This document shows, in pieces, positions 8,275 to 55,136 of a stretch of DNA of 64,000 nt. This stretch comes from Bacilli bacterium (GTDB lineage Bacteria > Bacillota_I > Bacilli_A > RFN20 > CAG-826). The position numbers and the translations under genes are program-made. The stretch covers positions 23,760-87,759 of the forward strand of contig JBAYXD010000001.1 in NCBI GenBank assembly GCA_041673725.1. Direction: 5' to 3'. Within the stretch, counting starts at the first letter, position 1. Each line of letters begins with the position of its first letter. A model generated the notes under the pieces. That model did not search any database. It worked only from the letters and a program-made list of their open reading frames with translations, and was not told where the DNA came from.

Positions 8275-8460
8275 ATGTGTATTCCTCCTCTTTAAAAAAT
8301 TACTCGCTATTAAGGTGAAAATTGAATTTCTTGGATACCTTTTTTAAGCGGTTGTAGCTAAATAGAGTTACAACGTAAGAATTATACATATATTTAGTAC
8401 GAGTGTCAAACAAGAAAATACTTAAAATAACTAAAAAAACATCGGATTAGGAGTGTAAAA
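8275..8460 (-). promoter_or_regulatory. possible L21 ribosomal-protein leader RNA / 5'UTR of the rplU-prp-rpmA operon
   Basis: 186 nt non-coding leader before rplU with an internal stem (GTTGTA ... TACAAC); Firmicutes commonly carry a structured L21 leader here; no consensus checked. Confidence 0.25.
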
Positions 8461-15686: not shown

Positions 15687-16622
15687 CTAATATTCGCTTT
15701 CAATTATAGCGACTATATCGGAATATTTATCCATTTTATTTTTAGTAATATTTAGTTCTTTATAATAGTTATCATCATTTAAACTTACGCTATACATTTT
15801 ACAAGCTGATTTTATTAAGGCGCCAATGAAACTATCGAGATCATTTTCTTCGATTTCATCAGGTAAACAATAAATAAAAGCTGGTCTAGCGATAACTGAA
15901 ACATAGTTAAATATGCTTATATTTTTTTCAGTCATACTCATCTCTTTTAACTTAGAGCTTAGAAGCTTTTCAAATGAAGAAACATATGTGTAATAATCTC
16001 CGGGAATTATCGAGTAATATCGATTATTTTTCTTAAATGTTATCCTCTTATTTACTTTCGCATACATGGCATATTCAAGCAATAAAGAATAACTAGAATC
16101 AAAAGACATGTTTGTTTCGAGATAATTAACAACAACATCCTTGCAGGAAACACCTTGAGACTCTAATTCAAAAAGTTTTTTGATAGCATAAAGCTTTTCT
16201 TCTTTCACACCACTACTCAGCATTTCTTTAATATTATTTATGCTTGCGTCCTTATTTGGGTCAGATTGTTCAAAGTATTCTTTAAGTTGTTTTAAGTACT
16301 CGTCCATGCCATTTAAGTATTCTTCAGTTTTTTGATTAACATAAGGTAAACTCTTGAAATGCTCCTTTTCTTTTTCTAAATCATCGTATCTTTTAAAATA
16401 AATCAACAAAAAGAAAAGAGCTTTACTACTACTAATTAAATCCCATTTTTCTACTTTTTCTCTACTTTTGTAGTATTCATTTAATGCTTCCTCGTATTTA
16501 TAGGTAGCTTCCAAACTCAAAATATTAAAAAGAAGATCTTCGGCATCATTTACATCAATTTGTTCGGCTAAAATGCTTTCATATAAGCCTTTTTCAAAAA
16601 GTTCTTTTATTTTTTTACTCAT
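15687..16622 (-). CDS. hypothetical cytoplasmic protein (about 311 aa), no recognisable family
   Basis: long ORF with likely start at MSKKIKELF (the longer track ORF would overlap uvrC by about 30 nt); no TM or signal peptide; no motif recognised. Confidence 0.45.
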   Translation of the reverse strand: MSKKIKELFEKGLYESILAEQIDVNDAEDLLFNILSLEATYKYEEALNEYYKSREKVEKWDLISSSKALFFLLIYFKRYDDLEKEKEHFKSLPYVNQKTEEYLNGMDEYLKQLKEYFEQSDPNKDASINNIKEMLSSGVKEEKLYAIKKLFELESQGVSCKDVVVNYLETNMSFDSSYSLLLEYAMYAKVNKRITFKKNNRYYSIIPGDYYTYVSSFEKLLSSKLKEMSMTEKNISIFNYVSVIARPAFIYCLPDEIEENDLDSFIGALIKSACKMYSVSLNDDNYYKELNITKNKMDKYSDIVAIIESEY

Positions 16623-16623
16623 C

Positions 16624-27347: not shown

Positions 27348-28586
27348 CTATAACTCATCCTTAGTTTCACTATAATCATCTTTTTTATCATCTTCACGTT
27401 TAATCTCTTTAATTCTTCCTTTAATATCATCCTCAAGAGTTCCTCTATAAGATGAAGAAAGCAAGATAGCACCAGCACAATTAACAAAACAAGTATCTTG
27501 AATTCCAATATTTGGTAATATTGGGAAATTGCATGAATAATTGTTTAGGAATTTAATCAAATAATTCTTAAAACCATTGATCTTAAAGTTTTCACCAATA
27601 AAAACAAGATTTAAATTATTCATAATATCTTTATATTCAGACATTAATTTTGTTAAACATTCATTGAATTTAGTTAGATAATCTTGGAAATACTTCACAA
27701 CTATTGCATTTAAGTCATCAAGATAAAAACTGACTGGTTTGTTATTAATTGTACTTGTAACAATTGCTGGATTTAAAATTGATTTTCGACCATCATAACC
27801 ATAAATATTAACAAGTTCTTCTGCATCCGCATGTAATAAATTGAAACTACCTGCGACAGCATCAACTAGATCATCAAAACCGAATGAAAAGAAACTTGAT
27901 GCATAAACAACATTATTACCAACAAATGATAAACTGGTAGATTTTCTACCACTATCAACTAAAACATAAGTATTTAATGTGTATTTATAAGCTTTAAATA
28001 ATTGAGATGCACCGATTGGAGCAATAACATTTCTTCTAATTTTTACTCCAGCATTTTCAACAGCATCCATAATATCTTGAACTTGGTTAGTTTCAAGAGA
28101 ATAAATATTTGCATCAACTAAAAGTTGACTACTTGTTTCACCTAATGGTGGTTCAGTAAAAACCTTGTCACCATCGATAGAAAAGTAATTTGGAATAATA
28201 TCAATAATCGAATTATTTTGATTTGGAATCTTCTCTTTCTTAAGCATCATGATATCGTTTGTAATATCAATTTTATCTACTTTACTAGATGTCGAAATAA
28301 CTGTCGTTGATTTTTGACTATTATAGACTTCAAGTCCATAAGGAGGCAAAACTAAAGCTACTTCGTTAACGTTAATCTTCACATTATGCTTTTTATCTTC
28401 GATAGTAAGCATGTTTTTAATATCATTAGTTAAACTACTTCCATCTAAAACTTCTCCATCTTTTAGCGCAACAGAAAGAGGCCTAATGATACTATTTGTG
28501 ATATTTACCTTGTCATCTTGAACATTTCCAATGACCAAAGTAATCGTTTTGCTTCTTATTTCTAGCGCTGCAATATCTTTTTCCAT
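27348..28586 (-). CDS. ftsA: divergent FtsA-like actin-family cell division protein
   Basis: 412 aa directly upstream of ftsZ in the dcw cluster; actin/ASKHA-like glycine motifs only weakly recognisable. Confidence 0.5.
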   Translation of the reverse strand: MEKDIAALEIRSKTITLVIGNVQDDKVNITNSIIRPLSVALKDGEVLDGSSLTNDIKNMLTIEDKKHNVKINVNEVALVLPPYGLEVYNSQKSTTVISTSSKVDKIDITNDIMMLKKEKIPNQNNSIIDIIPNYFSIDGDKVFTEPPLGETSSQLLVDANIYSLETNQVQDIMDAVENAGVKIRRNVIAPIGASQLFKAYKYTLNTYVLVDSGRKSTSLSFVGNNVVYASSFFSFGFDDLVDAVAGSFNLLHADAEELVNIYGYDGRKSILNPAIVTSTINNKPVSFYLDDLNAIVVKYFQDYLTKFNECLTKLMSEYKDIMNNLNLVFIGENFKINGFKNYLIKFLNNYSCNFPILPNIGIQDTCFVNCAGAILLSSSYRGTLEDDIKGRIKEIKREDDKKDDYSETKDEL

Positions 28587-34799: not shown

Positions 34800-35075
34800 T
34801 TCTCCTTTAGAAATAAAAAAAGAACTAGTTAGGAGCGAATTTCTCCGCGGTACCATCCTAATTCTTAATTAAACTTAATTAAACTATTTAACGCATAGAA
34901 TGCGGGTTCATCAAACCTGCTCAGAGGTGAATTTCATAGGTCTAATCGAAATGTTTCCACTATCCATTTCTCACTAGAAATTAGTAACTCTATTACTACT
35001 CCTCATCAACGCATTAATATAATATCATTTTATTAATTTTTCTTCACTACTTTTTGAAGGCAAAAAATACTGAAT
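34800..35075 (-). promoter_or_regulatory. T-box riboswitch leader (presumed Phe specifier) controlling the small ORF and pheST
   Basis: minus-strand T-box sequence AGGATGGTACCGCGG (plus coords 34845-34859), then a short stem and T7 run just before the RBS. Confidence 0.6.
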
Positions 35076-35090: not shown

Positions 35091-35654
35091 TTAATTGTAA
35101 TTAGTAAAGAATCTTTCGGCTTCATCTACAAACTCTTCAAAATTAAAGTCTTTATTTTGTAGGCCTTTATGCACAATTGCTCCATCAGTTAATAAAAGAA
35201 TCAACCACGATAAGAATTTTGCATCTTCAGGTTTACATTCAGTTTTAATTCTTTCGTAGATAGATTTGTTAAAAAGATTGTATTTCTCAATCATTTTTGT
35301 CTTTAAAACTTCATTCCCATTCGTGCACTCAGCAAGTAAATTGATTCGCATAGATGGATAACTAGTTCCTTTTAAGAGAACAAACTTAACAATACGATGA
35401 AGAGAAGTATCCTTATCTTTATTATCTATCCAAGTGATTAAATCATTATATAATTCATCGATTCTCCTCGAAAAGATGTCATAAACAATATCACTCTTAT
35501 TTTGATAATAGTAATAAATTGTACCACTGCTTATTTTGCAACTCTTCGCTACATCTCTTAAAGAGATATCAGAAAAATTTTTATTTACTAATAATTTTTC
35601 AGTTTCCTTAAGAATTAATTCTTTGATGTTTTCGCTATTTCTTTTTCTTGCCAT
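35091..35654 (-). CDS. TetR/AcrR family transcriptional regulator
   Basis: N-terminal HTH LRDVAKSCKISSGTIYYYYQNKSDIV, 187 aa, divergent from the flavoenzyme cluster. Confidence 0.8.
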   Translation of the reverse strand: MARKRNSENIKELILKETEKLLVNKNFSDISLRDVAKSCKISSGTIYYYYQNKSDIVYDIFSRRIDELYNDLITWIDNKDKDTSLHRIVKFVLLKGTSYPSMRINLLAECTNGNEVLKTKMIEKYNLFNKSIYERIKTECKPEDAKFLSWLILLLTDGAIVHKGLQNKDFNFEEFVDEAERFFTNYN

Positions 35655-35715
35655 AAAAATGTCCTCTAAAATCCATTGTTTTTAATTTATGAATATTATA
35701 TACTAATTTTATTAA

Positions 35716-35731
35716 ATCGGTCAATCGACCG
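35716..35731. promoter_or_regulatory. candidate TetR operator palindrome in the divergent intergenic region
   Basis: TCGGTC-AATC-GACCGA perfect 6-bp inverted repeat, GC-rich island in an AT-rich spacer, about 25 nt upstream of the RBS of the plus-strand cluster. Confidence 0.45.
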
Positions 35732-35753
35732 ACATAAGTTTGGAAGGTTACAT

Positions 35754-37463
35754 ATGAAAATCAAAAAATTAGAAAAAAAGTTTAAGAAACTCTATCCTTC
35801 AATTAATGTTGAAGAAAAAGATGGTTGTGTCCATTTAACCGGTACTCTCGATAATTGGGATGATATCGTTAATGCTGGTTATTTATCTGTTGATAAAAAG
35901 CGTTATATTGGTGTTCTTAACGATATAAAGTTAAAAGATTTCGTTGAACCAACCATGAGAATTCCAAAAGTAGTCGATAAATCACTTGAGGGATTAAAAG
36001 TTGATTGTCTTGTAATTGGAGGCGGAATATCTGGCACTTCAATCCTCAGAGAACTCATGCGTTATAACGTTTCGGCTTTATTAGTTGAAAAAGAATCTGA
36101 TTTAGCTATGCAAGCAAGTGGACGAAACGATGGAGAAGTTCATCCAGGTGTCGACTTAAATAAAGGTAGCAAAAAACAATACTATGTTGTTAGATCAAAC
36201 CCAGATTTTGGAAAGATTTGTGATGAACTGGGCGTTGATTTTTTTCGTAGAGGTCAATATGCTTGTTTTGATAAACCTCTAAGTCCAATATTAAAATTAT
36301 TTGCTAAATTCCGTACAAAAAATGGATGCCCTACTGAAGTTGCTAGTAAAAAAGAAATTGAAGAAAAAGAGAAATTCTTTAATAAAAATGTAAAATGCGC
36401 AGTTTCTAATCCTCAATCAGGAGTTGTTTCGCCATATGAATTAACCATTGCTTTTGCAGAAAACGCAGTTGCAAATGGAGCAAAAGTTTCGTTAGATACT
36501 GCAGTTTTAGGAATAAATGTTGAAAATAACCGAATAATTTCAGTGGTTACAAATAGAGGAATAATCTATCCAAAAGTTGTTATCAATGCTGCCGGATGTT
36601 TTTCAGATAAAATAGCCGAAATGGCTCATGATAGATTTTTCACTATTCATCCACGTTGTGGAACTGACTATATATTAGATAATAAGGTCAGCAATCAAAT
36701 TAACCATATTTCTTCTATTATGGGTAAAACAAATAATAAGAAAAAACATTCTAAAGGTGGAGGAATTGTTAAAACTATTGATAATAATATTTTAATTGGT
36801 CCTAATGCTCACGAAACACCATATCGTGAAGATTTTTCTGTTACTTCTTGTTCGTTAGATGAAATACTACATAAACAAGAAAGACTTCTTCCAACATTAA
36901 ATAAAAAAGATATCATCGCATATTTTAGCGGTACAAGAGCTGCAACATATGAAGAAGATTTTTATATTAGCAAAGGATTAAGAACAAAAAATATTGTTCA
37001 TTGCGCTGGAATACAATCTCCTGGGTTAACCACTGCACCACTCGTTGCTAAAGATATTAGCAAGATGGCAATTGAGGAATTAAAAGAAATTCAAAATGTT
37101 GATATTAATCCTAAATTCAATCCTATTCGCAAAAAAGATCCTGTTTTAAGAAAACTAAGTAACGAAGAAAGAACTGAATTAATCAAAAAGAATCCAAGCT
37201 ATGGACGTATTGTCTGTCGTTGCGAACAAATTAGTGAAGGTGAAATTGTTGATTGTTTAAACCGTAACATAAAAGTTCCAACAATAAATGGAATTAAAAG
37301 ACGTGTACGACCTGGGATGGGTCGATGCCAAGGAGGATTTTGTATGCCATTGGTCGCAAAAATTATTGCTGATCATGAACATATAAATATTTATGATGTT
37401 AAGGGAAAACAAATGGATAATCCAGTAACTTTCAAATCTACGAAAGGAGAAAACCATGAATAA
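35754..37463 (+). CDS. FAD-dependent oxidoreductase, GlpA/LhgO-like, with C-terminal BFD-like [2Fe-2S] domain
   Basis: start refined to ATG at 35754 (RBS GGAAGG); dinucleotide fold VIGGGISGTS...LLVEKESD; C-terminal CRCEQISEGEIVDCL...GMGRCQGGFC BFD motif. Confidence 0.75.
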   Translation: MKIKKLEKKFKKLYPSINVEEKDGCVHLTGTLDNWDDIVNAGYLSVDKKRYIGVLNDIKLKDFVEPTMRIPKVVDKSLEGLKVDCLVIGGGISGTSILRELMRYNVSALLVEKESDLAMQASGRNDGEVHPGVDLNKGSKKQYYVVRSNPDFGKICDELGVDFFRRGQYACFDKPLSPILKLFAKFRTKNGCPTEVASKKEIEEKEKFFNKNVKCAVSNPQSGVVSPYELTIAFAENAVANGAKVSLDTAVLGINVENNRIISVVTNRGIIYPKVVINAAGCFSDKIAEMAHDRFFTIHPRCGTDYILDNKVSNQINHISSIMGKTNNKKKHSKGGGIVKTIDNNILIGPNAHETPYREDFSVTSCSLDEILHKQERLLPTLNKKDIIAYFSGTRAATYEEDFYISKGLRTKNIVHCAGIQSPGLTTAPLVAKDISKMAIEELKEIQNVDINPKFNPIRKKDPVLRKLSNEERTELIKKNPSYGRIVCRCEQISEGEIVDCLNRNIKVPTINGIKRRVRPGMGRCQGGFCMPLVAKIIADHEHINIYDVKGKQMDNPVTFKSTKGENHE

Positions 37464-38700
37464 GTACGATACAATCGTAATTGGTGGCGGACCAGCAGGT
37501 CTTGCTGCTGCAATCAGTGCCCATAATAATGGTGCTAATGTATTTTTAATTGAACGTGAAGCTAGACTTGGAGGTATTTTAAAACAATGTATCCATGATG
37601 GCTTTGGTTTACTCTATTTTAATGAAAAACTTTCTGGTCCTGAATATGCTCAAAATTTTATTGACAAGTTTAATGATTTAAAAATCGAATCCACTACTAA
37701 CAGTTTTGTTACTAAAATTATTAAAAAAGATAATCTATTTTATATCGATTATGTTTCCGAAAAAGGTATGCAAACCGTTATTTCGAAAACACTTATTTTA
37801 TCGACAGGATGTCGAGAAAGAACTTCTAAACAAGTGTTTATCAACGGAACAAGACCATATGGAGTATTTTCTGCTGGTACTGCTCAATATTTTACAAATA
37901 TATTAGGGGTTCTACCTGCTAAGAAATGTGTAATTTTAGGAAGTGGCGATATTGGTTTAATTATGGCTCGAAGATTAACTCTCGAAGGCGTGAAAGTTTT
38001 GGGAGTATATGAAATTCTTCCATCCCCATCAGGTTTAACCCGAAATATTCATCAATGTTTACTCGATTATAATATTCCACTACATCTATCCCATACTGTA
38101 ACGAGATTATTTGGTGAAAATCGTTTAGAAGCTGTTGAAATATCCAAAGTTGATGAAAAACTTCAACCAATTAAAGGTACGGAAGAGAAAATTGAATGTG
38201 ATGCCTTGATTCTTTCTGTAGGTTTACTTCCTGAAAACGAATTAGCTGAATCACTTGGTGTTCCACTTGATCCAAGAACTAGAGGACCAATTGTAAATGA
38301 AGATTATATGACAATGGTCGATGGAGTCTTTACTTGTGGAAACGCAATGCAAGTAAATGATTTAGTGGATTATGTCTCATTCACTGCTGAAAAAGCAGGT
38401 ATGAGTGCTGCAAAATACGCAATTCAAAATAGAAGTTATAATGAAGTAAGTGCTTCGAAAGATTTTGGTTATGTTTTGCCTCAAAGATTATCTAAAGAAA
38501 TTAAAGAAGAAAATGTCGACTTTTACTTCCGTTCAAAAAAGATTGAAGAAAAAGTTCAAGTACAATTGATCTCTAATGACAAAGTTGTATTTTCAAAAAC
38601 TTATATGCATCTAAAACCACCAGAAATGGAAAAGATTACTATTAAATCTAGTGATTTAAATGTTGATGGTAATCTTGAACTTATTATGAAAAGAGGTTAA
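37456..38700 (+). CDS. FAD/NAD(P)-binding pyridine nucleotide-disulfide oxidoreductase (NADH-oxidase-like partner subunit)
   Basis: IVIGGGPAGLAAA FAD fold, second Rossmann motif ILGSGDIGLIMA, 414 aa; start overlaps the upstream gene stop. Confidence 0.75.
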   Translation: MNKYDTIVIGGGPAGLAAAISAHNNGANVFLIEREARLGGILKQCIHDGFGLLYFNEKLSGPEYAQNFIDKFNDLKIESTTNSFVTKIIKKDNLFYIDYVSEKGMQTVISKTLILSTGCRERTSKQVFINGTRPYGVFSAGTAQYFTNILGVLPAKKCVILGSGDIGLIMARRLTLEGVKVLGVYEILPSPSGLTRNIHQCLLDYNIPLHLSHTVTRLFGENRLEAVEISKVDEKLQPIKGTEEKIECDALILSVGLLPENELAESLGVPLDPRTRGPIVNEDYMTMVDGVFTCGNAMQVNDLVDYVSFTAEKAGMSAAKYAIQNRSYNEVSASKDFGYVLPQRLSKEIKEENVDFYFRSKKIEEKVQVQLISNDKVVFSKTYMHLKPPEMEKITIKSSDLNVDGNLELIMKRG

Positions 38701-38702
38701 TT

Positions 38703-39071
38703 ATGAAAGAATTATCATGTATTGTATGTCCAAATAGTTGCTCTCTTAAAGTTGAATTGGTTGATGGAAAATATGTTGTTACTGGTAATAAATGTAAACG
38801 TGGAGAAAACTTTGCAATTAACGAAATGACTCGACCAATGCGAACTATTTCTTCTACTGTTCGTACAACATTTAGTGATGCACCAGTCGTTCCAGTTAGG
38901 GTATCTAGTGAAATTCCTAAAGATAAAATATTTGATGTTATGAAAGAAATTAATAAAGTAGTCCTTAATAAAAGAGTAAAAAGAGGCTATAAAGTAATTA
39001 GTAATTGTCTAGATTTAAATATTGATGTTATCGTCACTAGTAATGTATTAGTTGATAAAAAAGGAGAATAA
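38703..39071 (+). CDS. DUF1667 Cys-rich small subunit of the GlpA-like complex
   Basis: 122 aa; N-terminal CIVCPNSCSL...GNKCKRGENF Cys cluster typical of DUF1667; co-located with the two flavoproteins. Confidence 0.6.
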   Translation: MKELSCIVCPNSCSLKVELVDGKYVVTGNKCKRGENFAINEMTRPMRTISSTVRTTFSDAPVVPVRVSSEIPKDKIFDVMKEINKVVLNKRVKRGYKVISNCLDLNIDVIVTSNVLVDKKGE

Positions 39072-39072
39072 G

Positions 39073-40614
39073 ATGCCAAATACTGAACCGTTAGTTTTCT
39101 CGTTTGACTTTGGTACCCAAAGCGTCCGAGCAATGCTTGTTGATAAGGATGGAAAAATTGTCTCTTTAGTTAGAGAAAAATATAATCCCCCTTATTATTC
39201 AAAAAAGATAGGCTATGCTGAGCAATCATTTGATACCTACTATAAATATGCTTGCATTGCCGCAAAATCTTTAAAAGAAAAGAATAAGAAATTATTTGAT
39301 CAAATAATTTGCGTTACCATCACCACTATTCGTGATACCTTCACTTGTAGTGATGAAAAAGGTAAACCAATTAGAGATTTTATTTTATGGTTAGATCAAA
39401 GAAGAGCAACTCATCATGAAAAGATGCCACTTTATAAGAGGATATTATTTAAAGCAGTAAGTATGGATTATGCTCTTGAAAGACAAAGAGAAATTTGTCG
39501 TCCAGCCTGGATTAAAGAAAATGAACCTGATATTTGGGAAAATACAAAAAAATTTAGTAATATTAGTGCAATTTTAAATGCTAAGTTAACCGGAAATTAT
39601 GTCGATTGTAACGCCTCTTGTATTGGTCACGTTCCATTTAATTATAAAACTAGAAATTGGATGAAAGAAAATGAACTTACTTATCCTTTATTTGAATTAG
39701 AACCAGATAAATTTATTAAAATTGTCACTCCAACTTCCCAAATTGGAAAAATAACTAAAGAAGCAGGCAACGAAACCGGATTAAAAGAAGGTTTACCTGT
39801 AATTGCTAGCGGTTCGGATAAAGGTTGCGAAACTATTGGCTCCGGCGTTATGAATAATTATTCAGCAGCTTTATCGATGGGAACAAGTGCAACTATTCAA
39901 TTTGCTACAAGAAAATATGTCGAACCAGCCAAGTTTTTACCCGCTTATCCATCTCCTAATCCAGATTTTTATAATCCTGAATTACAAGTTATGCGAGCAG
40001 GATGGATGTTTAGTTGGTTTATTGAAAACTTTGGTTTTGAAGACAAATTAATTGCGGAAAAGGAAGGTGTTTCACCTGAACACGTAATTAATCGTCAACT
40101 AGATAAAGTTCCATTAGGTTCTGGAGGATTATTACTACTTCCATACTGGAATGCACCACTAAAACAACCTGAAGCTCGAGGAACTATCTTAGGTTTTATG
40201 CCAGATCACAATAAATACTATATCTATCGAGCAATTATTGAAGGTGTCGTCTTTACTTTATATCAAGGATTCCAAACCTTAGAAAAAAATTCAAAACATC
40301 ATACTAGATATCTAGTAATCTCTGGAGGAAGTTCAGTAAGCGAAACAATTTGTCAAATCGTTGCTGATATCTTCAATCTTCCAGTTAAAAGGTCTAGAGA
40401 AAGTGAAGCTTGTGGTTTAGGTTCAGCAATGTGTGGATTTGTTGGGATGGGAGTTTATAAGTCATTTGATGAAGCGGCTAAAAATATGGTCCACTACTCA
40501 AAGACTTACGAACCAATAAAAGAAAATCATCTTGAATACGAAGAGATATATCGTAAAAAATTTGTAAAACTATATCCAAGTATTCGTGGTGTATATCGTA
40601 ACTATATTAAATAG
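39073..40614 (+). CDS. FGGY-family carbohydrate/polyol kinase (not canonical GlpK)
   Basis: start refined to ATG at 39073 (RBS AAAGGAG); phosphate-1 motif FDFGTQSVRA; FGGY N- and C-domains (SGGSSVSE); lacks the GlpK DQGTTSSR signature. Confidence 0.7.
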   Translation: MPNTEPLVFSFDFGTQSVRAMLVDKDGKIVSLVREKYNPPYYSKKIGYAEQSFDTYYKYACIAAKSLKEKNKKLFDQIICVTITTIRDTFTCSDEKGKPIRDFILWLDQRRATHHEKMPLYKRILFKAVSMDYALERQREICRPAWIKENEPDIWENTKKFSNISAILNAKLTGNYVDCNASCIGHVPFNYKTRNWMKENELTYPLFELEPDKFIKIVTPTSQIGKITKEAGNETGLKEGLPVIASGSDKGCETIGSGVMNNYSAALSMGTSATIQFATRKYVEPAKFLPAYPSPNPDFYNPELQVMRAGWMFSWFIENFGFEDKLIAEKEGVSPEHVINRQLDKVPLGSGGLLLLPYWNAPLKQPEARGTILGFMPDHNKYYIYRAIIEGVVFTLYQGFQTLEKNSKHHTRYLVISGGSSVSETICQIVADIFNLPVKRSRESEACGLGSAMCGFVGMGVYKSFDEAAKNMVHYSKTYEPIKENHLEYEEIYRKKFVKLYPSIRGVYRNYIK

Positions 40615-40631
40615 AAAAGGAAACAAAAAAA

Positions 40632-42365
40632 ATGAGCAAAAAGAAACAAGGTTTTTTACCAAAATGGGTTACTGAGGAAGCTTCTCCTAGATCTTATAGA
40701 TCTATTTCTCGATGGGGAGATCCAAAATTTGTAAAGTATCCAAAACCAGCTTTATATGAATTTATGAAGCAAACTTTTAAGATGACAGATGAAGATTTTA
40801 ACCATTACCATAACGATACTGGTTTTGAAGATGTTAATATTAAAATCCCAACCAAAATGGCTGAAAAAGACATCAAAGCTTTAAGCAAGATTGTTGGTAA
40901 TAAGAATGCATCTTTAGATGAATATGATAGATTATCCGTTATGTATGGCAAGACTTTATATGATGTCATGCGAATCCGTGAACACAAGTTTGATAGTGTC
41001 CCTGATTTAGTCTTATATCCAGAAACAACCGAACAAATCGAGAAAATAGTTGCTTATTGCACTACTAATAAAATACCACTTTATGTTTATGGAGGTGGTT
41101 CTAGTGTTACGCGAGGTGTTGAACCTGTTAAAGGTGGTGTATCTTTAGATATGCGTCGTAACTTTAATAAAGTATTAGGTTTTAATGAAATTGATCAAAC
41201 TATAACTGTTCAAGCTGGTATGAGTGGACCAGATTTAGAGCACCACTTAAATAATGCAATTAAAGAATTTAATGCAAAACGTGCTTTTACTTGTGGTCAC
41301 TTTCCACAATCCTTTGAATATTCTTCAGTTGGTGGTTGGGTTGTAACTCGTGGTGCTGGTCAAAATAGTACTTATTATGGTGTTATTGCAGATATTGTAT
41401 TATCACAAAAATATGCGACTCCAATCGGAACAATTAAGACTTCCCACTACCCAAGAGAATCGACTGGACCAAACCTCAATCAAATCATGATGGGTTCAGA
41501 AGGCACCTTTGGTGTTTTAACTGAAGTTACCCTTAAAGTGTTTAGATATATGCCAGAAAATCGTAAAAGATATTCATATATGTTTAAGACTTGGGAAGAT
41601 GCTATGAATGCCGCAAGAGAAATCATGCAAAGTGAAGATGGTTATCCATCAGCCTTTAGAGTTAGTGATGCAGAAGAAACTGATATGATGCTTAAACTAT
41701 ACAACGTTGATGAATCTCCACTTCGTCTATTCTTAAAAGGCTTTGAACCAATGAAACGAAGTTTAATGCTTGGTTTCACTGAAGGTGATACTGGTTATTC
41801 TAAAAATATTCGTAAAACTATTGCTCGTGTTGCAAGAAAATATCATGCTCGTTCATTAACTGGTATTGTTTGTAAGAGTTGGGAACATGGTAGATTCACT
41901 GATCCATATTTACGTGATACACTCTTAGATTTTGGTATTGCTACTGATACCTTAGAGTGCACTGTTAATTGGTCAAATATGGCAAAAGTTCATGAAGAAG
42001 TTCGTAAAATTTGTCATGCTAGACCAAATACTGTTGTTACAACTCACTTATCACATGCTTATCCACAAGGTGCAAACCTTTACTTTATCTTTATTACTCA
42101 TAGTGAAACTAGTGATGACTTCAAAAAATATCACTCCACTATTCTTGATGCAATTCAAAAAAGTGGCGCTGCAATCTCACATCACCATGGTATCGGTAAG
42201 ATGTTTGCTCCATGGCTTGAAGGCTATATAGGTAGAAAAGAATATGGTGTCTATCATGCGTTAAAAGACTACTTCGATAAAGATTATCTCATGAATCCAG
42301 GCGGAACAATTGGTCTTGATTTAAAAGAAAAAGACAAAAAGTTCTTAAATAAAGACGTTAAATAA
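40632..42365 (+). CDS. FAD-linked oxidase of the alkyldihydroxyacetonephosphate synthase (AGPS)-like subfamily
   Basis: 577 aa; pre-FAD N-terminal extension with RWGDPKF; PCMH FAD domain VYGGGSSVTRGVEP; strong blocks shared with animal AGPS (FEYSSVGGWVVTRGAG, STGPNLNQIMMGSEGTFGV, SHHHGIGK...NPG). Confidence 0.7.
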   Translation: MSKKKQGFLPKWVTEEASPRSYRSISRWGDPKFVKYPKPALYEFMKQTFKMTDEDFNHYHNDTGFEDVNIKIPTKMAEKDIKALSKIVGNKNASLDEYDRLSVMYGKTLYDVMRIREHKFDSVPDLVLYPETTEQIEKIVAYCTTNKIPLYVYGGGSSVTRGVEPVKGGVSLDMRRNFNKVLGFNEIDQTITVQAGMSGPDLEHHLNNAIKEFNAKRAFTCGHFPQSFEYSSVGGWVVTRGAGQNSTYYGVIADIVLSQKYATPIGTIKTSHYPRESTGPNLNQIMMGSEGTFGVLTEVTLKVFRYMPENRKRYSYMFKTWEDAMNAAREIMQSEDGYPSAFRVSDAEETDMMLKLYNVDESPLRLFLKGFEPMKRSLMLGFTEGDTGYSKNIRKTIARVARKYHARSLTGIVCKSWEHGRFTDPYLRDTLLDFGIATDTLECTVNWSNMAKVHEEVRKICHARPNTVVTTHLSHAYPQGANLYFIFITHSETSDDFKKYHSTILDAIQKSGAAISHHHGIGKMFAPWLEGYIGRKEYGVYHALKDYFDKDYLMNPGGTIGLDLKEKDKKFLNKDVK

Positions 42366-42414: not shown

Positions 42415-43161
42415 TTACTTATTTAGATGCGCTTTATATAAAATAATTGAGGCTGCTACGCCAACATTTAAGGAATCAATGTTACTCATTTCAATAAAGA
42501 CCTTATAATCGGCAAGGTCAATTATTTCTTTTTTAATTCCTTGACCTTCGTTACCAAAAACAAAAACATATTTTTCATTAGTATCGAACTTAAAGTCATC
42601 TAGTTTGATAGCGTCTTTTGAAAGAATAGAAACCACAATTTTATAGCCTTGGGTCTTTAGTTTTTTAAGTTTATCAATATCACTGTTTTCAATATTTAGA
42701 TTAAAAATTGCACCTTGAGAAGCTTGAATAGCTTTATCGTTATATTTATTTACTGAATCGTTACTAATTAAAATATCAAAATTAGAAAAAGCAAGAGCTG
42801 AACGTAATATTGTACCAAGATTCCCTGGATCTTGAATATTATCAAGATAAATAAGATTATTTGATAACTTAATGGAATCATTAATATAATTACAAACAGC
42901 TATTACATCAGGGGCAGACTTGCTAGTACTGATTTTTTCAATAATGTCTTTAGTTACTATATATTGATCAATATTTTCATCAACGTTATTTATGTGTTTT
43001 GTCGTTATAATATAGCAAATATTATTGGCTTTAATTGCCATTTCGAATAAATGCTCACCTTCAATTACAAACTTCTTTTCTTCTTGTGATTTTTTGTTAT
43101 TTCTAAGTGAAATTGTTTTTTGAACAATTTGGTTTTTTCTACTAGTTATATACTTAATCAT
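42415..43161 (-). CDS. TrmH/SpoU-family RNA 2'-O-methyltransferase (RlmB/YsgA-like)
   Basis: SPOUT motifs NIQDPGNLGTILRSA and VFGNEGQGI, 248 aa. Confidence 0.8.
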   Translation of the reverse strand: MIKYITSRKNQIVQKTISLRNNKKSQEEKKFVIEGEHLFEMAIKANNICYIITTKHINNVDENIDQYIVTKDIIEKISTSKSAPDVIAVCNYINDSIKLSNNLIYLDNIQDPGNLGTILRSALAFSNFDILISNDSVNKYNDKAIQASQGAIFNLNIENSDIDKLKKLKTQGYKIVVSILSKDAIKLDDFKFDTNEKYVFVFGNEGQGIKKEIIDLADYKVFIEMSNIDSLNVGVAASIILYKAHLNK

Positions 43162-43163: not shown

Positions 43164-43802
43164 CTATTTATTAACTCCTTTATAGTTTCCTAATCTCAAT
43201 GCCTTATGTAAACTATCATAATCACTACAATATTTATAAACAAAATTATAGAAGTTTTTTGAATGGTCATAATAGAAACAATGAGCTAATTCATGAACAA
43301 TTATCGCATCAATTATATCTTTTGAAAAATGAATTAGATATGAATTGATTGTAATATGATGAGTTCTTTTACTATTGCTTCCATATCGAGTTGAAACATA
43401 CTTCGTTGAAACATTGTAAGGTTTATCAACATTCATAAGTTTTTCATAATATCTAATTCTTGCTTCAATATAAGTTAAAAAATATTTATTGATATCTTTA
43501 TAAAATGTCTTTGAACTAAAAAGAACAAAATGCCCATCAATTGAAATAAATCCATCTTTAATTTCTTGTTTTTCACCATATATCCAACAATAAGTGTCAG
43601 AAAAAGGTTTTTCTATTACTTTAGTAGGTCTAGATTTATGTTTAGAAAGTACATTTTCAAGATAACTATTTGTAACTAGATATGGGCATCTAATCGTATA
43701 TTTTCCATCTTTTACTACCCACCTAATTGATCTTATATTCTTATATTCAATTGAAGCTTCGTGAATTTCACCATTAATATTTAGCGTAGTCTCTTTTTTC
43801 AT
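43164..43802 (-). CDS. YgjP-like DUF45 zinc metallohydrolase (WLM/SprT-like HExxH)
   Basis: N-terminal YKNIRSIRWVVKDGKYTIRCP pattern and IVHELAHCFYYDHSKNFYNFV zinc-binding motif. Confidence 0.55.
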   Translation of the reverse strand: MKKETTLNINGEIHEASIEYKNIRSIRWVVKDGKYTIRCPYLVTNSYLENVLSKHKSRPTKVIEKPFSDTYCWIYGEKQEIKDGFISIDGHFVLFSSKTFYKDINKYFLTYIEARIRYYEKLMNVDKPYNVSTKYVSTRYGSNSKRTHHITINSYLIHFSKDIIDAIIVHELAHCFYYDHSKNFYNFVYKYCSDYDSLHKALRLGNYKGVNK

Positions 43803-43857
43803 ATAGAAATATTATAAAGAAATACATATAATATTTAAAGCAATGAAAGGGAATTAA

Positions 43858-44934
43858 ATGGAAACTATTATTGTAAGTGCTTGTTTATTAGGCGATAAAT
43901 GCCGTTATGATGGCAAAGATAACTATAACGATAACGTTAAGTTTTTAAAAGAACACTTTAATATTGTTCCTATTTGTCCTGAAGTTTTTGGTGGAATGTC
44001 TACTCCACGTGTTCCAAGTGAACAACGTGAAGGTTCTGTTGTTGATAAGAATGGAAAAGATGTTACTAAGTATTTTGAAAAAGGTCGAGATGATGTATTA
44101 AATATTGTTAAATATCTCCATATAAGAAAAGCTGTTTTAACTGAAAACTCCCCTTCTTGTGGAATTCATAAGGTCTATAATGGTCGTTTTAATAATACTT
44201 TAATTGATGGTAATGGTATCACCACTAAAGCTCTTTTAGAGTTAGGTGTTGCTTGTTATAGCATCGATGAAGTTGAAAAATTAATTGATAAGACTCAAAA
44301 ACAACTTTACGAAATTAAAGAACAAGAAATTCTTGAACACGAAAGAATCAATAAAGAAAAAGCAGCTAAGAATGCGGAGTATTCCACTATTGATAACAAA
44401 GCTTATCAAGAAAAGAGACGTGCTGAACGTAGCAATTATTCAAAAGATGGTGATTATAGTTCAAATAGAAGAGAAGGATATTCAAGAGGATATTCATCTC
44501 GTTCTAGAGATGATAATTATAGTAATCGTAATAGCGAACCAAGAAGCGGCTATTCAAGAGGTTATTCTTCTCGTTCTAGAGATGATAACTATAGTAATCG
44601 TGGAGATTCACGAGGCAATTATTCAAGAAGTTCTACTCGTGATGGCGATAGACCATATTCTTCACGCCCATATAAAAAGAGTTACTCAAATAATTATTCT
44701 AGAGATTCTAATTCTCGTGATGATAGTCGTTCCTATTCTTCTAGAACTCCTAGAAGATCCTATGATAATAATTATTCAAGAGATTCTAATAGTCGCGATA
44801 GTAGCCGTTCATATTCTTCTAGATCTACTGGAAGAAGCTATTCAAAAGGTTATTCATCAAATTCAAGAAGTTCATATAATACACGTAATAAATCAAGCTA
44901 TTCAAAACCAAAAGACAATGATGAAGGTAAATAA
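43858..44934 (+). CDS. DUF523 (TudS-like thiouracil/thiouridine desulfidase, [4Fe-4S]) domain fused to a long Arg/Ser/Tyr-rich repetitive low-complexity tail
   Basis: residues 1-140: IIVSACLLGDKCRYDG, CPEVFGGMSTPRVPSE, ENSPSCGIHKVYNGRFNNTLIDGNGITTKAL match the DUF523/TudS Cys triad signature; residues about 190-358 made of GYSRGYSSRSRDDNYSNR and NNYSRDSNSRDDSRSYSSR type repeats. Confidence 0.75.
   Translation: METIIVSACLLGDKCRYDGKDNYNDNVKFLKEHFNIVPICPEVFGGMSTPRVPSEQREGSVVDKNGKDVTKYFEKGRDDVLNIVKYLHIRKAVLTENSPSCGIHKVYNGRFNNTLIDGNGITTKALLELGVACYSIDEVEKLIDKTQKQLYEIKEQEILEHERINKEKAAKNAEYSTIDNKAYQEKRRAERSNYSKDGDYSSNRREGYSRGYSSRSRDDNYSNRNSEPRSGYSRGYSSRSRDDNYSNRGDSRGNYSRSSTRDGDRPYSSRPYKKSYSNNYSRDSNSRDDSRSYSSRTPRRSYDNNYSRDSNSRDSSRSYSSRSTGRSYSKGYSSNSRSSYNTRNKSSYSKPKDNDEGK
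44476..44841 (+). repeat. in-frame imperfect tandem repeats inside the RS-tail coding region
   Basis: two 72-nt units (44476-44547, 44548-44619) and two roughly 75-78-nt units (44689-44766, 44767-44841) encoding the RS/Y-rich peptide repeats. Confidence 0.7.
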
Positions 44935-45458
44935 TGACTAAAACGAGATTCATAATCATTAAAATCTCTTTAACTGGTTTAATGATTGCGCTTATTTATG
45001 TTTGCACAGCTTTTTTAAGCATTCCTTTTGCGAACGGTGCTGGTTATTTTAATTTTAGTGATTGTTTAATTCTTTTTACGAGTATTTATATTGGACCTGT
45101 TGAAGGAATTTTAAGCGCGATTATTAGTTGTGCTTTAGCGGATTTACAAGCTGGTGCAGCCCAATTTATTCCATTTACTATCGTTGCTAAAGGACTCGAA
45201 GCAATCGTTGCTTTCTTAATCTATAAACCACTTAAAAATCATAATATTTTAAAATATATCTCAGTTGTTATTGCTCCACTATTTATGGTCGCAACTTACT
45301 TTTTAGCTTATATTTTATTATTTGATATTAGTTATACTTTTAATTCAATATTTGATTTAATTCAAGGACTTGTTGGTTCAATCCTTGCAATTACACTACT
45401 TAAACTATTTTCAAGAATTCCGCTTGAAAACTTAATCCATAATAAAAAAGAAGATTGA
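44934..45458 (+). CDS. ECF-transporter S-component-like small membrane protein (FolT/ECF_trnsprt-like)
   Basis: 174 aa, 5-6 TM; motif FSDCLILFTSIYIGPVEGILSAI resembles the FolT-type FSDVPALLAALLFGPVAGI; start overlaps the upstream stop (TAATG). Confidence 0.55.
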   Translation: MTKTRFIIIKISLTGLMIALIYVCTAFLSIPFANGAGYFNFSDCLILFTSIYIGPVEGILSAIISCALADLQAGAAQFIPFTIVAKGLEAIVAFLIYKPLKNHNILKYISVVIAPLFMVATYFLAYILLFDISYTFNSIFDLIQGLVGSILAITLLKLFSRIPLENLIHNKKED

Positions 45459-45482
45459 ACTCAACATTCAATCTTCTTTTAT
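45440..45482. terminator. bidirectional terminator between the ECF-S gene and glgP
   Basis: perfect 10-bp stem GAAGATTGAA-ctcaaca-TTCAATCTTC flanked by A-run and T-run; overlaps the ECF-S stop codon. Confidence 0.6.
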
Positions 45483-51305: not shown

Positions 51306-52022
51306 TTAATTTCCACTATAAACATATTGAGCATTAAAAGTAGTTGAAATCTTGTATCCAGAATTTGTAAGCGATTTGACTTCCATATTTGAAGAAACAA
51401 GCATTCCGTATGTATCTACAACAAAAATATTATTAATAATATAATCTTTTTTAGTTAAATCATTTTCAAGATTATATGTTAATAACGTTTTATCATTATT
51501 TAATGAAAAATTATTATAATAATCTGTAGCATTAATGATTAGATTATCTCCGTAATACTTACCATACATATGGTATCCACTTTGATTTTCGGTATAAAAA
51601 TAGCTTCTAATATTCTCTTTAATACTATCTTTCATTGTTAGCGGATCTTTTATTTCACCATTTTCTTTAATGATTGATGACAAATTATTATTTTCATCAC
51701 AAGAATCTTCTTCAAAATAAGTTTTTAAGTTGTTTTCAATATAATTCCCAACATATGTCGCATTTTTTTTATAATAAAGAGAATTGGAATTCCATGAAAA
51801 GGAAATTTCATATTCGCTTGAACCTAATATTTCTTCACCATCATAATCCACTTGTTTAAAATAACAAGACCCGGATTGAGTCGATTTTTCAGTTTTCTCA
51901 TACTCAAAAGAATCGATAAAATCTTTTATATCGCCTTCAGGCATTGAAGAACTTCCACAACTAACCAAAAGCAAAGATGACAACACTATTAACAATTTTT
52001 TATATAATTTCTTTTTAATCAT
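51306..52022 (-). CDS. hypothetical lipoprotein
   Basis: start refined to MIKKKLYKKLLIVLSSLLLVSCGSS (lipobox LVSC); Asn/Tyr-rich mature part, no family recognised. Confidence 0.5.
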   Translation of the reverse strand: MIKKKLYKKLLIVLSSLLLVSCGSSSMPEGDIKDFIDSFEYEKTEKSTQSGSCYFKQVDYDGEEILGSSEYEISFSWNSNSLYYKKNATYVGNYIENNLKTYFEEDSCDENNNLSSIIKENGEIKDPLTMKDSIKENIRSYFYTENQSGYHMYGKYYGDNLIINATDYYNNFSLNNDKTLLTYNLENDLTKKDYIINNIFVVDTYGMLVSSNMEVKSLTNSGYKISTTFNAQYVYSGN

Positions 52023-52023
52023 C

Positions 52024-52590
52024 TTACAAATTATACTCATAAACACAGTTGCCGTAAATACATTCATTATCTGCAGAATTATAGGCATTTATAGTTGAAA
52101 AATTCTCGCTAAGTAAATAACCATTTTTGTCATAATCAATAGAAGCATTCCACTTTGCGCTCATTTCCATCCCAAAACGATTAATAATCAATCTTTTGTT
52201 GCAAGAAAACACTTTAAAAGATAAACCATCATCTTGCTGATAAATATAAACATTATAAATAGACGTTTGAGATAGAAATCTATTCTTTATTGCAAGGTAA
52301 GAATCTTCCCAATTAGCTGAATTAATATGAGTTGGCAGCGATAAATAAAATGATTTGTTAGTGTCGACATAATCAATATTCTCTTCACTTACATCATAAG
52401 ATCCAATATTTTTTGCAAGAAAATTCATTTTTCCTTTGCGACTATAGGTTTTATAATCTAAATCAACAAAATTATTAACGATAGTTAAAGCTTCATTTTC
52501 ATTTATATCATCACCATTTGAATTAGCAGAACATGAAAATATCAAAGGTATAGTCATCAATAACAAAATATTTTTAAAATACTTTTTCAT
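52024..52590 (-). CDS. hypothetical lipoprotein
   Basis: signal peptide plus lipobox IFSC (MKKYFKNILLLMTIPLIFSCSANS), 188 aa. Confidence 0.55.
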   Translation of the reverse strand: MKKYFKNILLLMTIPLIFSCSANSNGDDINENEALTIVNNFVDLDYKTYSRKGKMNFLAKNIGSYDVSEENIDYVDTNKSFYLSLPTHINSANWEDSYLAIKNRFLSQTSIYNVYIYQQDDGLSFKVFSCNKRLIINRFGMEMSAKWNASIDYDKNGYLLSENFSTINAYNSADNECIYGNCVYEYNL

Positions 52591-52598: not shown

Positions 52599-55136
52599 CT
52601 AATAAATTCTTAATCCAATTCCCTTTTCAGTAATTTGAATTCTAGTAATATCAAACTTTAAATTAATCTTCTCCCCTACTTTAAGTTTTTCTTTTAAAAT
52701 ACAATAAATTTGTTTTGGTTCACCATCAAAATTAATCTTACAATTATAGTAAATCTTTCCGTTAACAATTTGGCTGCCTTCAACAACTGCATCGAAGCCA
52801 TCTTTATCAATTCTATAAGCATTATGAGGTATTTCTAATAAATAAGTTTTACTAAATACTTTTGTTCCAAGACTTTGAACCATTTTATTTGAAATAATTT
52901 CAGTTGATTCAACGTATTTCTTACCGAATTTAAAGAAGAATAATTGATCTTGTTTTAAAATATCATTATTTTCTTCAACACTTAATTCTTTATCTTTATG
53001 TTTGAACTCGCTGCTCAAATATGATGCATAATTTTCATCAACTTTAAACTTCTTCTTCATCTTAACTAATTCAGCTTTAAGTGCTGCGTTTTCACGCTTA
53101 TAATAACCATTAGTACTATTTACATTAGTTTCATAAACAATTGATTCTTCGTTTATACGTCGTGTAAGTTCGTTATTTCTTTCTTTTGGTAAATTGTCTT
53201 TATAATTTTTATGTTCTTCTCTTCTCTTGCGTCCTTCCTCTTTATCTGTATTAATCTCAACAAATTTCTTATAAGACGCTTTCTCTTCTTCTTTTAAATT
53301 ATCATAAAGAACATTTACTTCATTCTTAATAGAAACAAGTTTCTCTTTGTGAGCTTTATTGAAAGTATTAATTTTAGTTTTTTGTTCAACTTTATTGCAG
53401 GTTATTGCTTTTTCAACTTTGTCTTTTTCTAACAAATAGGCTTTATCATCTTTTTCTTTTAGTTCAACATTATTTATTTTTTGTGCATCTAAAATCTTCT
53501 TTTCATATTCTTTTTTGAGAACAGATTTTTTAGATTCATATTCTTTTTTTGTATCTAAAATTCTGTTTTCAATAATTTCTTTATAACCACTTAAATCATT
53601 CTTAGCAGTAAAATAATTGATAAATGAACCGTTAATACTATCGAATTCTGGCATAGGTTGAATCAAAGATTCTTTCTCATTTTTAACAAGAATTTGTGTG
53701 TAGTCAAAATCAAATTTAACTGTTGAGCCAATCTTATAGTCTTTGTTGGCTATGCTAAAAAGTAGTCTATTCCCAACTTTAATATAAACGAGTTTTTTAT
53801 TTCCAATTGTTTCAAAATTGATAATTTTACCATCAAAAGGACCATCATCAAGAATAATTGAGTTTGAATTAATAAACAACTCACCTTCACCATCTTTAGC
53901 TTTAATTGATAATGGAAGTTTAATTTTTAAGTCGCCAATAACGATGCTTTGTTTTTCAACTTTGCAATTCAAGACATTAATTTCAGGAAGTCTTGGCATC
54001 ACAGACTCTTCTGTTGATTTATCAAAAATATGACATTTTTTCAGATTTAAAACAGCTTTTACAATTTGTCCTGGTTTGAAATCATAAGTTGATGTCCCCT
54101 TAACAATTACTCTTGTAGATGTTTCGCCAAAACCATCACCATTAAGATCTGTATCAGCATAGATTAGAGTTTCGTTGCCAAGTTCTTCAAAATGAGATAT
54201 TTTTACATCAATTGCAGACTTATCATTTTTAGTTTTTTCTGGGTCAACTGTAATATCCTCACATCTTAAACCAACATAAACAAGGTGCTTATTATCTAAA
54301 TAAATAGGTTGAAGTTTTAATAAATCATCATGAGGAACTTCAATTTTTGCATTACTATATTTAAAATTAAAACTAATTAAATCTTTTGCACTTGAAAGTG
54401 TTGCTTCAAAAAAGTTCATTTGTGGAGTTCCAATAAACCCTGCAACGAATTTGTTATTAGGATAATCATAAAGATTTTTTGGAGTATCTATTTGTTGAAT
54501 ACGTCCACTCTTCATAACAACAACACGAGTTCCAAGGGTCATTGCTTCAACTTGATCGTGAGTAACATAAACAAATGTAGTTTTTAATTCTTCATGCAAC
54601 TTTGCAATTTCACTTCTCATTTGAGCACGTAATTTTGCATCCAAATTGCTCAATGGTTCATCTAAAAGCATAACTTTTGGATTTCTTAAAATAGCACGTC
54701 CTAAGGCGACTCTTTGACGTTGACCACCACTCATTGCTTTTGGTTTTCTATCCAAATAATCGTTTAAACCTAAAATATTTGATGCCCATAAAACTTTCTG
54801 ATGAATAATATCGTTTGGTACATGACGTAATTGAAGGCCAAAAGCCATATTTTCATAAACTGTCATATGTGGGTACAATGCATAGTTTTGGAAAACCATT
54901 GCGATATCTCTATCTTTTGGTTCAACATCATTTACAATTTTTCCATCAATATACAATTCACCAGCACTTATATCTTCAAGTCCAGCAATCATTCTTAAAG
55001 TTGTGGACTTTCCACATCCAGATGGACCCACAAGAACAATGAACTCCTTATCTTCAATGTTCATTGTAAAATCGCTTACTGCTTTTGTCCCATTTGGATA
55101 AACCTTATAAATGTGTTCTAATCTTAAATCTGCCAT
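52599..55136 (-). CDS. MalK/MsmK-type sugar ABC transporter ATPase with about 470 aa C-terminal extension
   Basis: Walker A GPSGCGKST, Q-loop, signature MSGGQRQRVALGRA, Walker B VMLLDEPLSNLD, H-loop; then a TOBE-like region, a second beta-rich region, about 160 aa Lys/Glu-rich probable coiled coil, and a terminal beta-rich domain. Confidence 0.8.
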   Translation of the reverse strand: MADLRLEHIYKVYPNGTKAVSDFTMNIEDKEFIVLVGPSGCGKSTTLRMIAGLEDISAGELYIDGKIVNDVEPKDRDIAMVFQNYALYPHMTVYENMAFGLQLRHVPNDIIHQKVLWASNILGLNDYLDRKPKAMSGGQRQRVALGRAILRNPKVMLLDEPLSNLDAKLRAQMRSEIAKLHEELKTTFVYVTHDQVEAMTLGTRVVVMKSGRIQQIDTPKNLYDYPNNKFVAGFIGTPQMNFFEATLSSAKDLISFNFKYSNAKIEVPHDDLLKLQPIYLDNKHLVYVGLRCEDITVDPEKTKNDKSAIDVKISHFEELGNETLIYADTDLNGDGFGETSTRVIVKGTSTYDFKPGQIVKAVLNLKKCHIFDKSTEESVMPRLPEINVLNCKVEKQSIVIGDLKIKLPLSIKAKDGEGELFINSNSIILDDGPFDGKIINFETIGNKKLVYIKVGNRLLFSIANKDYKIGSTVKFDFDYTQILVKNEKESLIQPMPEFDSINGSFINYFTAKNDLSGYKEIIENRILDTKKEYESKKSVLKKEYEKKILDAQKINNVELKEKDDKAYLLEKDKVEKAITCNKVEQKTKINTFNKAHKEKLVSIKNEVNVLYDNLKEEEKASYKKFVEINTDKEEGRKRREEHKNYKDNLPKERNNELTRRINEESIVYETNVNSTNGYYKRENAALKAELVKMKKKFKVDENYASYLSSEFKHKDKELSVEENNDILKQDQLFFFKFGKKYVESTEIISNKMVQSLGTKVFSKTYLLEIPHNAYRIDKDGFDAVVEGSQIVNGKIYYNCKINFDGEPKQIYCILKEKLKVGEKINLKFDITRIQITEKGIGLRIY

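Follow-up and report, generated by a model that had tools for sequence, protein, structure and literature searches.

A 64,000-nucleotide stretch of the Bacilli bacterium assembly GCA_041673725.1 (contig JBAYXD010000001.1, positions 23,760 to 87,759 of the forward strand; ~30% GC), hereafter called the window, was analysed with respect to a gene for a TudS/DUF523-like desulfidase and the gene that overlaps its 3' end. The desulfidase open reading frame (ORF; 43858..44934, + strand) encodes a protein of 358 aa. It is followed by a gene for the S component of an energy-coupling factor (ECF) transporter (44934..45458, +; 174 aa, six helices, PF07155 RibU/HmpT-like family), and a 1-base overlap joins the stop codon of the first gene to the start codon of the second (TAATG). 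A promoter-like site (TAGAAA-17-TATAAT, 43804..43832, +) with 10/12 consensus positions was found in the 55 bp that separate the desulfidase gene from its divergent neighbour; it is a match to the consensus alone, and such sites are no commoner in the region than in shuffled sequence. A bidirectional intrinsic-terminator-like hairpin (45446..45480) with a stem of 14-15 pairs and a T-run on both strands closes the two-gene unit as well as the convergent glgP; it is the sole terminator hairpin and lies 3' of the second gene. Since a promoter-like site precedes the first gene and the only terminator follows the second, the two genes look like an operon, and the S-component gene is probably co-transcribed with the desulfidase gene and translationally coupled to it. 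These findings agree with a first-pass annotation, made by a model without database searches, which had given both ORFs and their overlap and had taken the genes to be translated together. An Rfam scan of the window at the gathering threshold did not reveal a riboswitch or leader for the operon; the only matches were a T-box (34828-35018) and an L21 leader (8292-8363).

Desulfidase domain, linker helix and tail

The N-terminal part of the protein (aa 1-140, 43858..44277, +) was assigned to the TudS/DUF523 [4Fe-4S] desulfidases by Pfam, by a match to the PDB, by its fold and by conserved residues. Residues 4-135 match PF04463 (2-thiour_desulf/DUF523) with E=2e-40 and 138.5 bits (cutoff 34.7) and cover positions 1-138 of the 141 of the profile. 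The crystallised stand-alone TudS (6z92) was matched at E=1.9e-26 and is, with its related PDB entries, the sole solved relative. Forms fused to DUF1722 were matched no better than E=3e-5. The AlphaFold2 (AF2) model of the domain, with a predicted local distance difference test (pLDDT) score above 90 for residues 1-140, was compared with 6Z92/6Z96 by Foldseek, which gave a target template modelling (TM) score of 0.86-0.90, a root mean square deviation of 1.5-1.7 Å and 41% identity. The cluster ligands of TudS_A are C10, C43 and C104 and its catalytic residues E45, S101 and S103 (PMC10611767). In the HMMER alignment, C9, C40 and C101 of the protein studied here align with the former and E42, S98 and S100 with the latter. 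C9, C40, C101, E42 and S98 are invariant across 37 homologues; S100 is replaced by Ala in some relatives. Judged by its sequence and predicted structure, the protein belongs to the TudS-type desulfidases and its active site is intact, and the DUF523/TudS domain with three cysteines, which had been proposed in the first-pass annotation, is borne out. PF04463 was the only Pfam match in the 358-aa protein; neither DUF1722 (PF08349) nor an RNA recognition motif (RRM) nor another RNA-binding domain was found by Pfam. The NCBIfam model NF045597 for the CD3072-family TudS-related desulfidase gave 15.9 bits against a cutoff of 130. Among further relatives (P0046-P0102), DUF523 domains are fused to a HAD phosphatase, NUDIX, methyltransferase, pseudouridine synthase or formyltransferase domain or to kinase-like domains (AAA_28, shikimate-kinase-like, thymidylate kinase), and most of these partners handle nucleotides or RNA.

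Beyond the domain the protein carries ~215 extra residues, which had been described as one tail of about 200 aa. The extension is genuine and largely disordered and, as had been stated, free of transmembrane segments and signal peptides, but it falls into two parts, a helix and a tail of 163 aa. The first part is a Lys/Glu (KE)-rich single alpha-helix linker (aa 147-194, 44296..44439, +; AF2/DSSP, pLDDT 64-91) of ~48 residues, which is uninterrupted in the prediction. It holds the sequence NAEYSTIDNK (aa 168-177, window positions 44359-44388). The motif N(A/T)EYSK(I/L)(D/N)NK is kept in the clade of the query (P0002-P0016), including forms of ~200 aa that have no long tail, and could be a docking motif. 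The second part (aa 196-358, 44443..44931, +) is a low-complexity tail, disordered according to its composition and an AF2 pLDDT of ~40. Its 163 residues comprise only ten residue types (S 49, R 29, Y 20, D 17, N 17, G 11, K 8, P 5, T 4, E 3), corresponding to 30% S, 18% R, 12% Y, 10% D, 10% N and 7% G with a net charge of +17; A, C, F, H, I, L, M, Q, V and W are absent. Tyr recurs every 4-13 residues, and there are 15 [GSN]Y[GS] motifs. In spite of the earlier label of an Arg/Ser (RS)-domain-like sequence, the tail is not a classical RS domain: it is rich in Tyr, and its 28 RS/SR dipeptides lie dispersed between Tyr, Asp, Asn and Gly residues and do not form runs as in RS domains of the eukaryotic type. 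Two internal duplications were found, a direct repeat of two units with a 72-nt period (R[E/S]GYSRGYSSRSRDDNYSNR; 44469..44601, +; 89% identity) and a tandem repeat of two units with a 78-nt period (NNYSRDSNSRD[D/S]SRSYSSR...; 44689..44844, +; 79-84% identity).

A homology search with the tail only was empty and did not return even the protein itself, the limit being the candidate collection for low-complexity queries. A local phmmer search with the tail recovered the protein itself at 276 bits, and with default HMMER filters only the near-identical P0001 was recovered, even among relatives known to have tails. Therefore, the empty search is no evidence that such tails are absent elsewhere.

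The tail is genuine and maintained

The protein of 358 aa was found on contigs from three independent samples and assemblies, with P298S as the sole difference in the protein; one of the three contigs has five further differences, all of them synonymous and all in the domain. Relatives whose domains are 52-73% identical (e.g. P0003, P0005, P0006, P0008 and P0010) carry in-frame tails of 90-210 residues rich in Ser, Arg, Tyr, Asn and Gly. The ratio of non-synonymous to synonymous substitution rates (dN/dS) between repeat copies was 0.15 for the 72-nt pair, 0.68 for the 78-nt pair and 0.40 for both combined, as compared to 1.41 in the +1 frame; despite the small sample, the values clearly point one way. 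Read in the +2 frame, this DNA is interrupted by many stops. Over the same DNA an I/L/V-rich ORF of 218 aa (44285-44941, +) is open in the +1 frame, and one might take it for the real product and the tail for an artefact. This is hardly credible in view of the three assemblies, the in-frame tails of the relatives and the dN/dS values, which also rule out a frameshift, a misassembly or a wrong frame as the origin of the tail, an objection that the first-pass annotation had itself raised. The +1 ORF is not a gene; its frame stays open only since codons with T in the second position, which a stop would require, do not occur in the tail. The tail is real, disordered and maintained.

The distribution of tails was analysed in a one-genome-per-species scan (GTDB) with the family alignment, which gave 80 loci; 84 non-redundant loci were used for the counts. 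The scan loci stem from metagenome-assembled genomes of uncultured Bacilli from gut, rumen and digesters, labelled Candidatus Onthovivens (placed in Bacilli by NCBI), Coprobacillus sp. CAG:826, 'Mollicutes', Erysipelotrichaceae or Bacilli; the few labels outside these groups look like binning errors. Contigs of 1.0-1.2 Mb that bear relatives suggest very small genomes. At least 60 residues beyond the domain are present in 29/84 loci (35%), 20-59 residues in 6/84 and none in 49/84 (58%), and the tail-less orthologues of these 49 species sit at the same syntenic position. The S-component gene is directly downstream in 35/84 (42%). Both long-tailed DUF523 proteins and the adjacency of DUF523 and S-component genes, for which a search of public genomes had been suggested in the first-pass annotation, do occur there, and such tails are common on the desulfidase within this lineage.

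The tails range from ~60 to 300 aa and are unalignable between species, and their repeat units differ (RKPYGD, HSSYGH, KKDGF(K/R), KKPFG, SSYSRG). All tails of at least 60 aa contain 6-15% Tyr plus Phe at regular spacing and almost no aliphatic residues, with a charge of mostly +8 to +31. In a neighbour-joining tree built from the catalytic domains of 85 loci, the tailed state requires only 6 changes as compared to ~25 when the states are shuffled; the query is placed in a smaller, separate tailed clade. The tail has therefore persisted in a large clade although its sequence was fully rewritten, and this retention despite turnover argues for selection on composition, not on sequence. Basic-aromatic low-complexity segments were found in 40/113 DUF523 ORFs and in 1 of ~3,400 other ORFs from ~1.3 Mb of related loci, a sample that is biased towards the desulfidase neighbourhood, and no other ORF of the window has a comparable segment. 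A proteome-wide habit of forming low-complexity segments was, therefore, rejected for the window and the sampled loci.

The S component and the surrounding genes

The product of the second gene matched PF07155 with E=4.4e-22 and 79.3 bits (cutoff 26.7) and PF12822 with 31.3 bits (cutoff 30.7). Every NCBIfam S-component model stayed below its cutoff; FolT (TIGR04518) reached E=1e-3 and 18.6 bits (cutoff 60). In a PDB profile search with a profile of 20 homologues, 4HZU_S (HmpT/PdxU2) was found at 1.5e-10, RibU at 4e-4 and FolT at 0.05. The AF2 model has six helices (pLDDT 87, predicted TM score 0.84). Its top 27 fold matches in the PDB were all ECF S components, led by RibU and 4HZU_S with TM scores of 0.72-0.79, and FolT reached 0.52-0.67. 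Therefore, the protein is an ECF S component, but not a FolT-like one: the assignment to a transporter family in the first-pass annotation was right, and the identity as FolT is ruled out by the NCBIfam score as well as by the profile and fold rankings. Genes for EcfA, EcfA' or EcfT do not adjoin the S-component gene, although not every ORF of the window was scanned for them. HmpT was the original name of the S subunit of 4HZU, for which binding of pyridoxamine was demonstrated afterwards (PMC4860826).

Apart from one higher-GC group, all metagenomic S orthologues with at least 39% identity and enough upstream DNA have a DUF523 gene directly upstream, often with a stop/start overlap, and the subfamily is lineage-restricted and occurs almost exclusively just 3' of a DUF523 gene. 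More distant homologues (30-35% identity; L117-L169) often adjoin EcfA/EcfT genes, besides genes for purine and formyl-transferase functions, and in eight cases a distant homologue adjoins an Ala_racemase_N gene (YggS-like, pyridoxal phosphate homeostasis), which fits a B6-type substrate for the distant branch. A transfer of substrate from these homologues to the S component of the window was rejected since their contexts are too mixed and the homologues themselves too distant.

Upstream and divergent from the desulfidase gene lies a gene for a YgjP-like metallohydrolase with a HELAH motif (43164..43802, - strand; PF01863, E=1.4e-24), which is adjacent to the desulfidase gene in most of the 84 species loci (L004-L089). 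It is followed by a gene for a SpoU-family RNA 2'-O-methyltransferase (42415..43161, -; PF00588, E=3e-34), a conserved neighbour that is regarded as context only; in relatives the order is YgjP-like gene, SpoU-family methyltransferase gene and pheST. YgjP of E. coli carries the annotation UTP pyrophosphatase (table in PMC12783615), and the YgjP neighbour together with the nucleotide-domain fusions hints at a pathway from thio-UTP via thio-UMP to UMP, which is a lead and not a result. In the window a cluster of a TetR regulator gene and glycerol-catabolism genes (FAD oxidoreductases, DUF1667, FGGY kinase, FAD-linked oxidase) at 35091-42365 separates the pheS T-box leader from the SpoU and YgjP genes; since pheST, SpoU and YgjP are contiguous in relatives, it looks like a lineage-specific insertion.

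The window further contains housekeeping genes (recJ, ruvAB, obg, valS, lon, tig, uvrC, mutS2, rnhC, ileS, ftsZ and rsmH/mraZ), pheST with its T-box leader, the glycerol cluster, glgP/glgB and a maltodextrin ATP-binding cassette (ABC) system. The MalK-like ABC ATPase (52599-55136, -) has 845 aa, about twice the usual size; the versions of relatives have 438-485 aa. After the ABC_tran and OB_MalK domains it contains a long KE-rich helical stretch and then a C-terminal part that has no Pfam match. Five ORFs of 188-913 aa, all on the minus strand, have no Pfam match at E<=1e-5 (1647-4388, 15687-16655, 27348-28586, 51306-52088 and 52024-52590); among them, an ORF of 412 aa adjoins ftsZ at the place where ftsA is expected.

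Function and relation to known systems

TudS prefers 4-thio-UMP and salvages thiouracils (PMC10611767), and TudS of C. difficile detoxifies 4-thiouracil and enables its use by the cell (PMC12210855). By analogy, the desulfidase studied here would convert thiolated uracil compounds to their oxo forms, with 4-thio-UMP or 4-thiouracil as likely substrates. Going by the conserved residues, the three cysteines would hold the cluster, its free iron would bind the thiocarbonyl sulfur, and E42, S98 and S100 would assist hydrolysis. In its host, an uncultured gut bacterium of the class Bacilli with a small genome (Candidatus Onthovivens/CAG-826-like), the main task of the enzyme would be to salvage and detoxify thio-pyrimidines derived from tRNA turnover or present in the gut. 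The tail, we infer, binds RNA or other polyanions without specificity and may be prone to form condensates; in this way the enzyme would be kept close to RNA, to ribosomes or to places of RNA decay, where 4-thio-UMP is set free, and it may gain some access to RNA-borne 4-thiouridine (s4U). The S component probably imports a small heterocycle; that this is a pyrimidine or thio-pyrimidine can only be guessed from its place in the operon. A thio-pyrimidine salvage and detoxification enzyme with an RNA- or polyanion-binding tail and an importer for a small heterocycle is the interpretation that we tentatively prefer, although as a whole it falls somewhat short of probable. A small-molecule core function, with a tail that modulates it but does not define it, is favoured by the closeness of the domain to stand-alone TudS, by the 58% of orthologues that have no tail and by the fusions to nucleotide-handling domains.

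Several observations weigh against this interpretation. The S-component gene accompanies 10/29 tailed and 19/49 tail-less orthologues, the two traits thus being independent, and on the domain tree the S-adjacent state requires at least 12 changes. A "dedicated importer", as postulated in the first-pass annotation, is not supported: tail and S-component gene were gained and lost independently in the 84 species, each missing in more than half of them. A higher-GC group (L115, L121, L122, L123 and L128) has the S-component gene without DUF523 in the same slot, after pheST-SpoU-YgjP and before glgP, and the adjacency of DUF523 and S-component genes can be explained by vertical inheritance of one ancestral locus and repeated loss. 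The closest characterised relative of the S component binds pyridoxamine and not a pyrimidine nucleobase. With regard to the tail, a few are His-rich or near neutral with a net charge of -2 to +5, and therefore a simple positive-charge model does not cover all tails.

In RudS, a DUF1722 domain added to TudS makes a tRNA s4U desulfidase, and stand-alone TudS has no effect on s4U in tRNA (PMC11417400). This precedent makes an RNA-directed desulfidase plausible, and the basic, Tyr-rich tail could take the place of DUF1722 in a RudS-like eraser that removes s4U or 2-thiouridine (s2U) from intact tRNA or RNA. The tail, with its R, S, G and Y residues and a net charge of +17, is typical of RNA-binding disordered regions, and the neighbouring SpoU methylase and pheST genes concern RNA or tRNA. 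However, the linkage of SpoU and pheST is generic in Bacillota, the protein has no DUF1722, its catalytic domain resembles stand-alone TudS far more than the RudS type, a non-specific disordered tail would not obviously place U8 of tRNA in the active site, and 58% of the orthologues at the same locus do without a tail; we regard such an eraser as unlikely. Doubtful as well is the far-reaching version of this idea, in which helix and tail would be a bacterial RNA-binding, possibly condensate-forming module independent of DUF1722, the enzyme a second, convergent class of RNA s4U/s2U erasers and the S component an importer of thio-pyrimidines.

At the other end, the enzyme could be an ordinary TudS whose tail arose by slippage in an AT-rich, reduced genome and is neutral or tolerated, at most a solubility aid or spacer, with the S component being an unrelated vitamin importer, e.g. 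for a B6 vitamer. The repeats are recent DNA duplications, the tails are unalignable and of very different length, and tail and S component are each absent from most orthologues and independent of each other; moreover, the best characterised S relative is the pyridoxamine-binding 4HZU_S, and distant homologues adjoin YggS-like genes. But neutral sequence at 30% GC would be rich in I, L, F, K and N, and instead ten residue types are absent; the repeat copies differ mostly synonymously; the tailed state was retained in a large clade with a constant compositional style; and this type of tail is confined to one protein family in the ~1.3 Mb of related DNA. Further, the start-stop overlap with the S-component gene is kept in many species. 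A neutral tail beside an unrelated importer is, on balance, rather unlikely. A membrane tether was considered as well, in which the basic-aromatic tail would bind anionic lipids in the manner of MARCKS and hold the desulfidase beside the ECF transporter to process the substrate on entry. The operon partner is a membrane protein, and Lys/Phe-rich tails of several relatives (KKPFGKK, KSFSKNKNSKFTKNKF) resemble basic-aromatic membrane-binding segments, but 19/29 tailed orthologues have no S component downstream, and the tail of the query, with Tyr and Arg among many Asp, Ser and Asn and no Phe, Leu or Trp, is a poor fit to lipid insertion; a tether is improbable.

To our knowledge, TudS and RudS are the only enzymes known to remove sulfur from thio-uridines. 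The tail described here changes fast in sequence, keeps its composition and looks like eukaryotic RNA-binding or phase-separating sequence. If it binds RNA, RNA-directed desulfuration would have arisen convergently by a second route, and the shared locus of tailed and tail-less orthologues would offer a clean natural system for the study of bacterial disordered tails. If the S component does import thio-pyrimidines, it would be the first ECF transporter for a thio-nucleobase. Bacteria without TudS are poisoned by 4-thiouracil, which C. difficile uses as a nutrient, and therefore the operon could mark a route of thio-pyrimidine uptake and detoxification in gut bacteria with small genomes. Should the tail prove inert and the transporter serve a vitamin, nothing more than an ordinary TudS gene would be left.

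In sum, the enzyme and the transporter class are known, and the appendage, its maintenance across the lineage and the operon partner are undescribed. As the first-pass annotation had supposed, the architecture and the operon are described neither in the TudS/RudS papers nor in the searched papers that mention DUF523, and no publication was found that links DUF523/TudS to ECF transporters or to disordered tails. The family has been divided into single-domain proteins (58.9%) and DUF1722 fusions (40.1%), and disordered tails are not mentioned in the TudS/RudS papers (PMC11417400); domain databases would count the tailed proteins as "single-domain TudS".

The S component shares the PF07155 family and the six-helix fold with RibU and HmpT/PdxU2 (PDB 3P5N, 5KBW, 4HZU; PMC4860826), but is only ~21-23% identical to them, and its gene has no EcfAA'T genes beside it, which one would expect of a group-II S component. 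With eukaryotic RS domains and FUS-like [G/S]Y[G/S] domains the tail has in common the high content of Arg, Ser and Tyr and the predicted disorder. A composition of Tyr plus Arg "stickers" is associated with RNA binding and phase separation. Unlike those domains, the tail is bacterial, rich in Asp and Asn and has neither long RS runs nor an RRM; the resemblance is compositional only, and homology cannot be shown. The stand-alone TudS proteins (PDB 6Z92-6Z96; Aeromonas-like TudS_A, P. putida PP_5158 and C. difficile TudS) have the same catalytic domain, with 41% identity, the same Cys ligands and the same Glu and Ser residues, and likely the same role in thio-pyrimidine salvage and detoxification. 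They are, however, monomers of ~150-170 aa without an appendage, to which the protein described here adds a helix and a tail as well as a co-transcribed S component. RudS is like it in having a TudS domain with a C-terminal module that could bind RNA, and to this extent the appendages are loosely analogous. The catalytic domains of the two are only distantly related (E ~1e-4 to 1e-5), RudS genes sit in light-response operons and not beside ECF S components, and the appendage of RudS is the folded DUF1722 and not an unstructured low-complexity tail. The work on RudS revealed that the attachment to the TudS core decides between action on free nucleotides and action on tRNA; the clade described here has attached something quite different to the same core.

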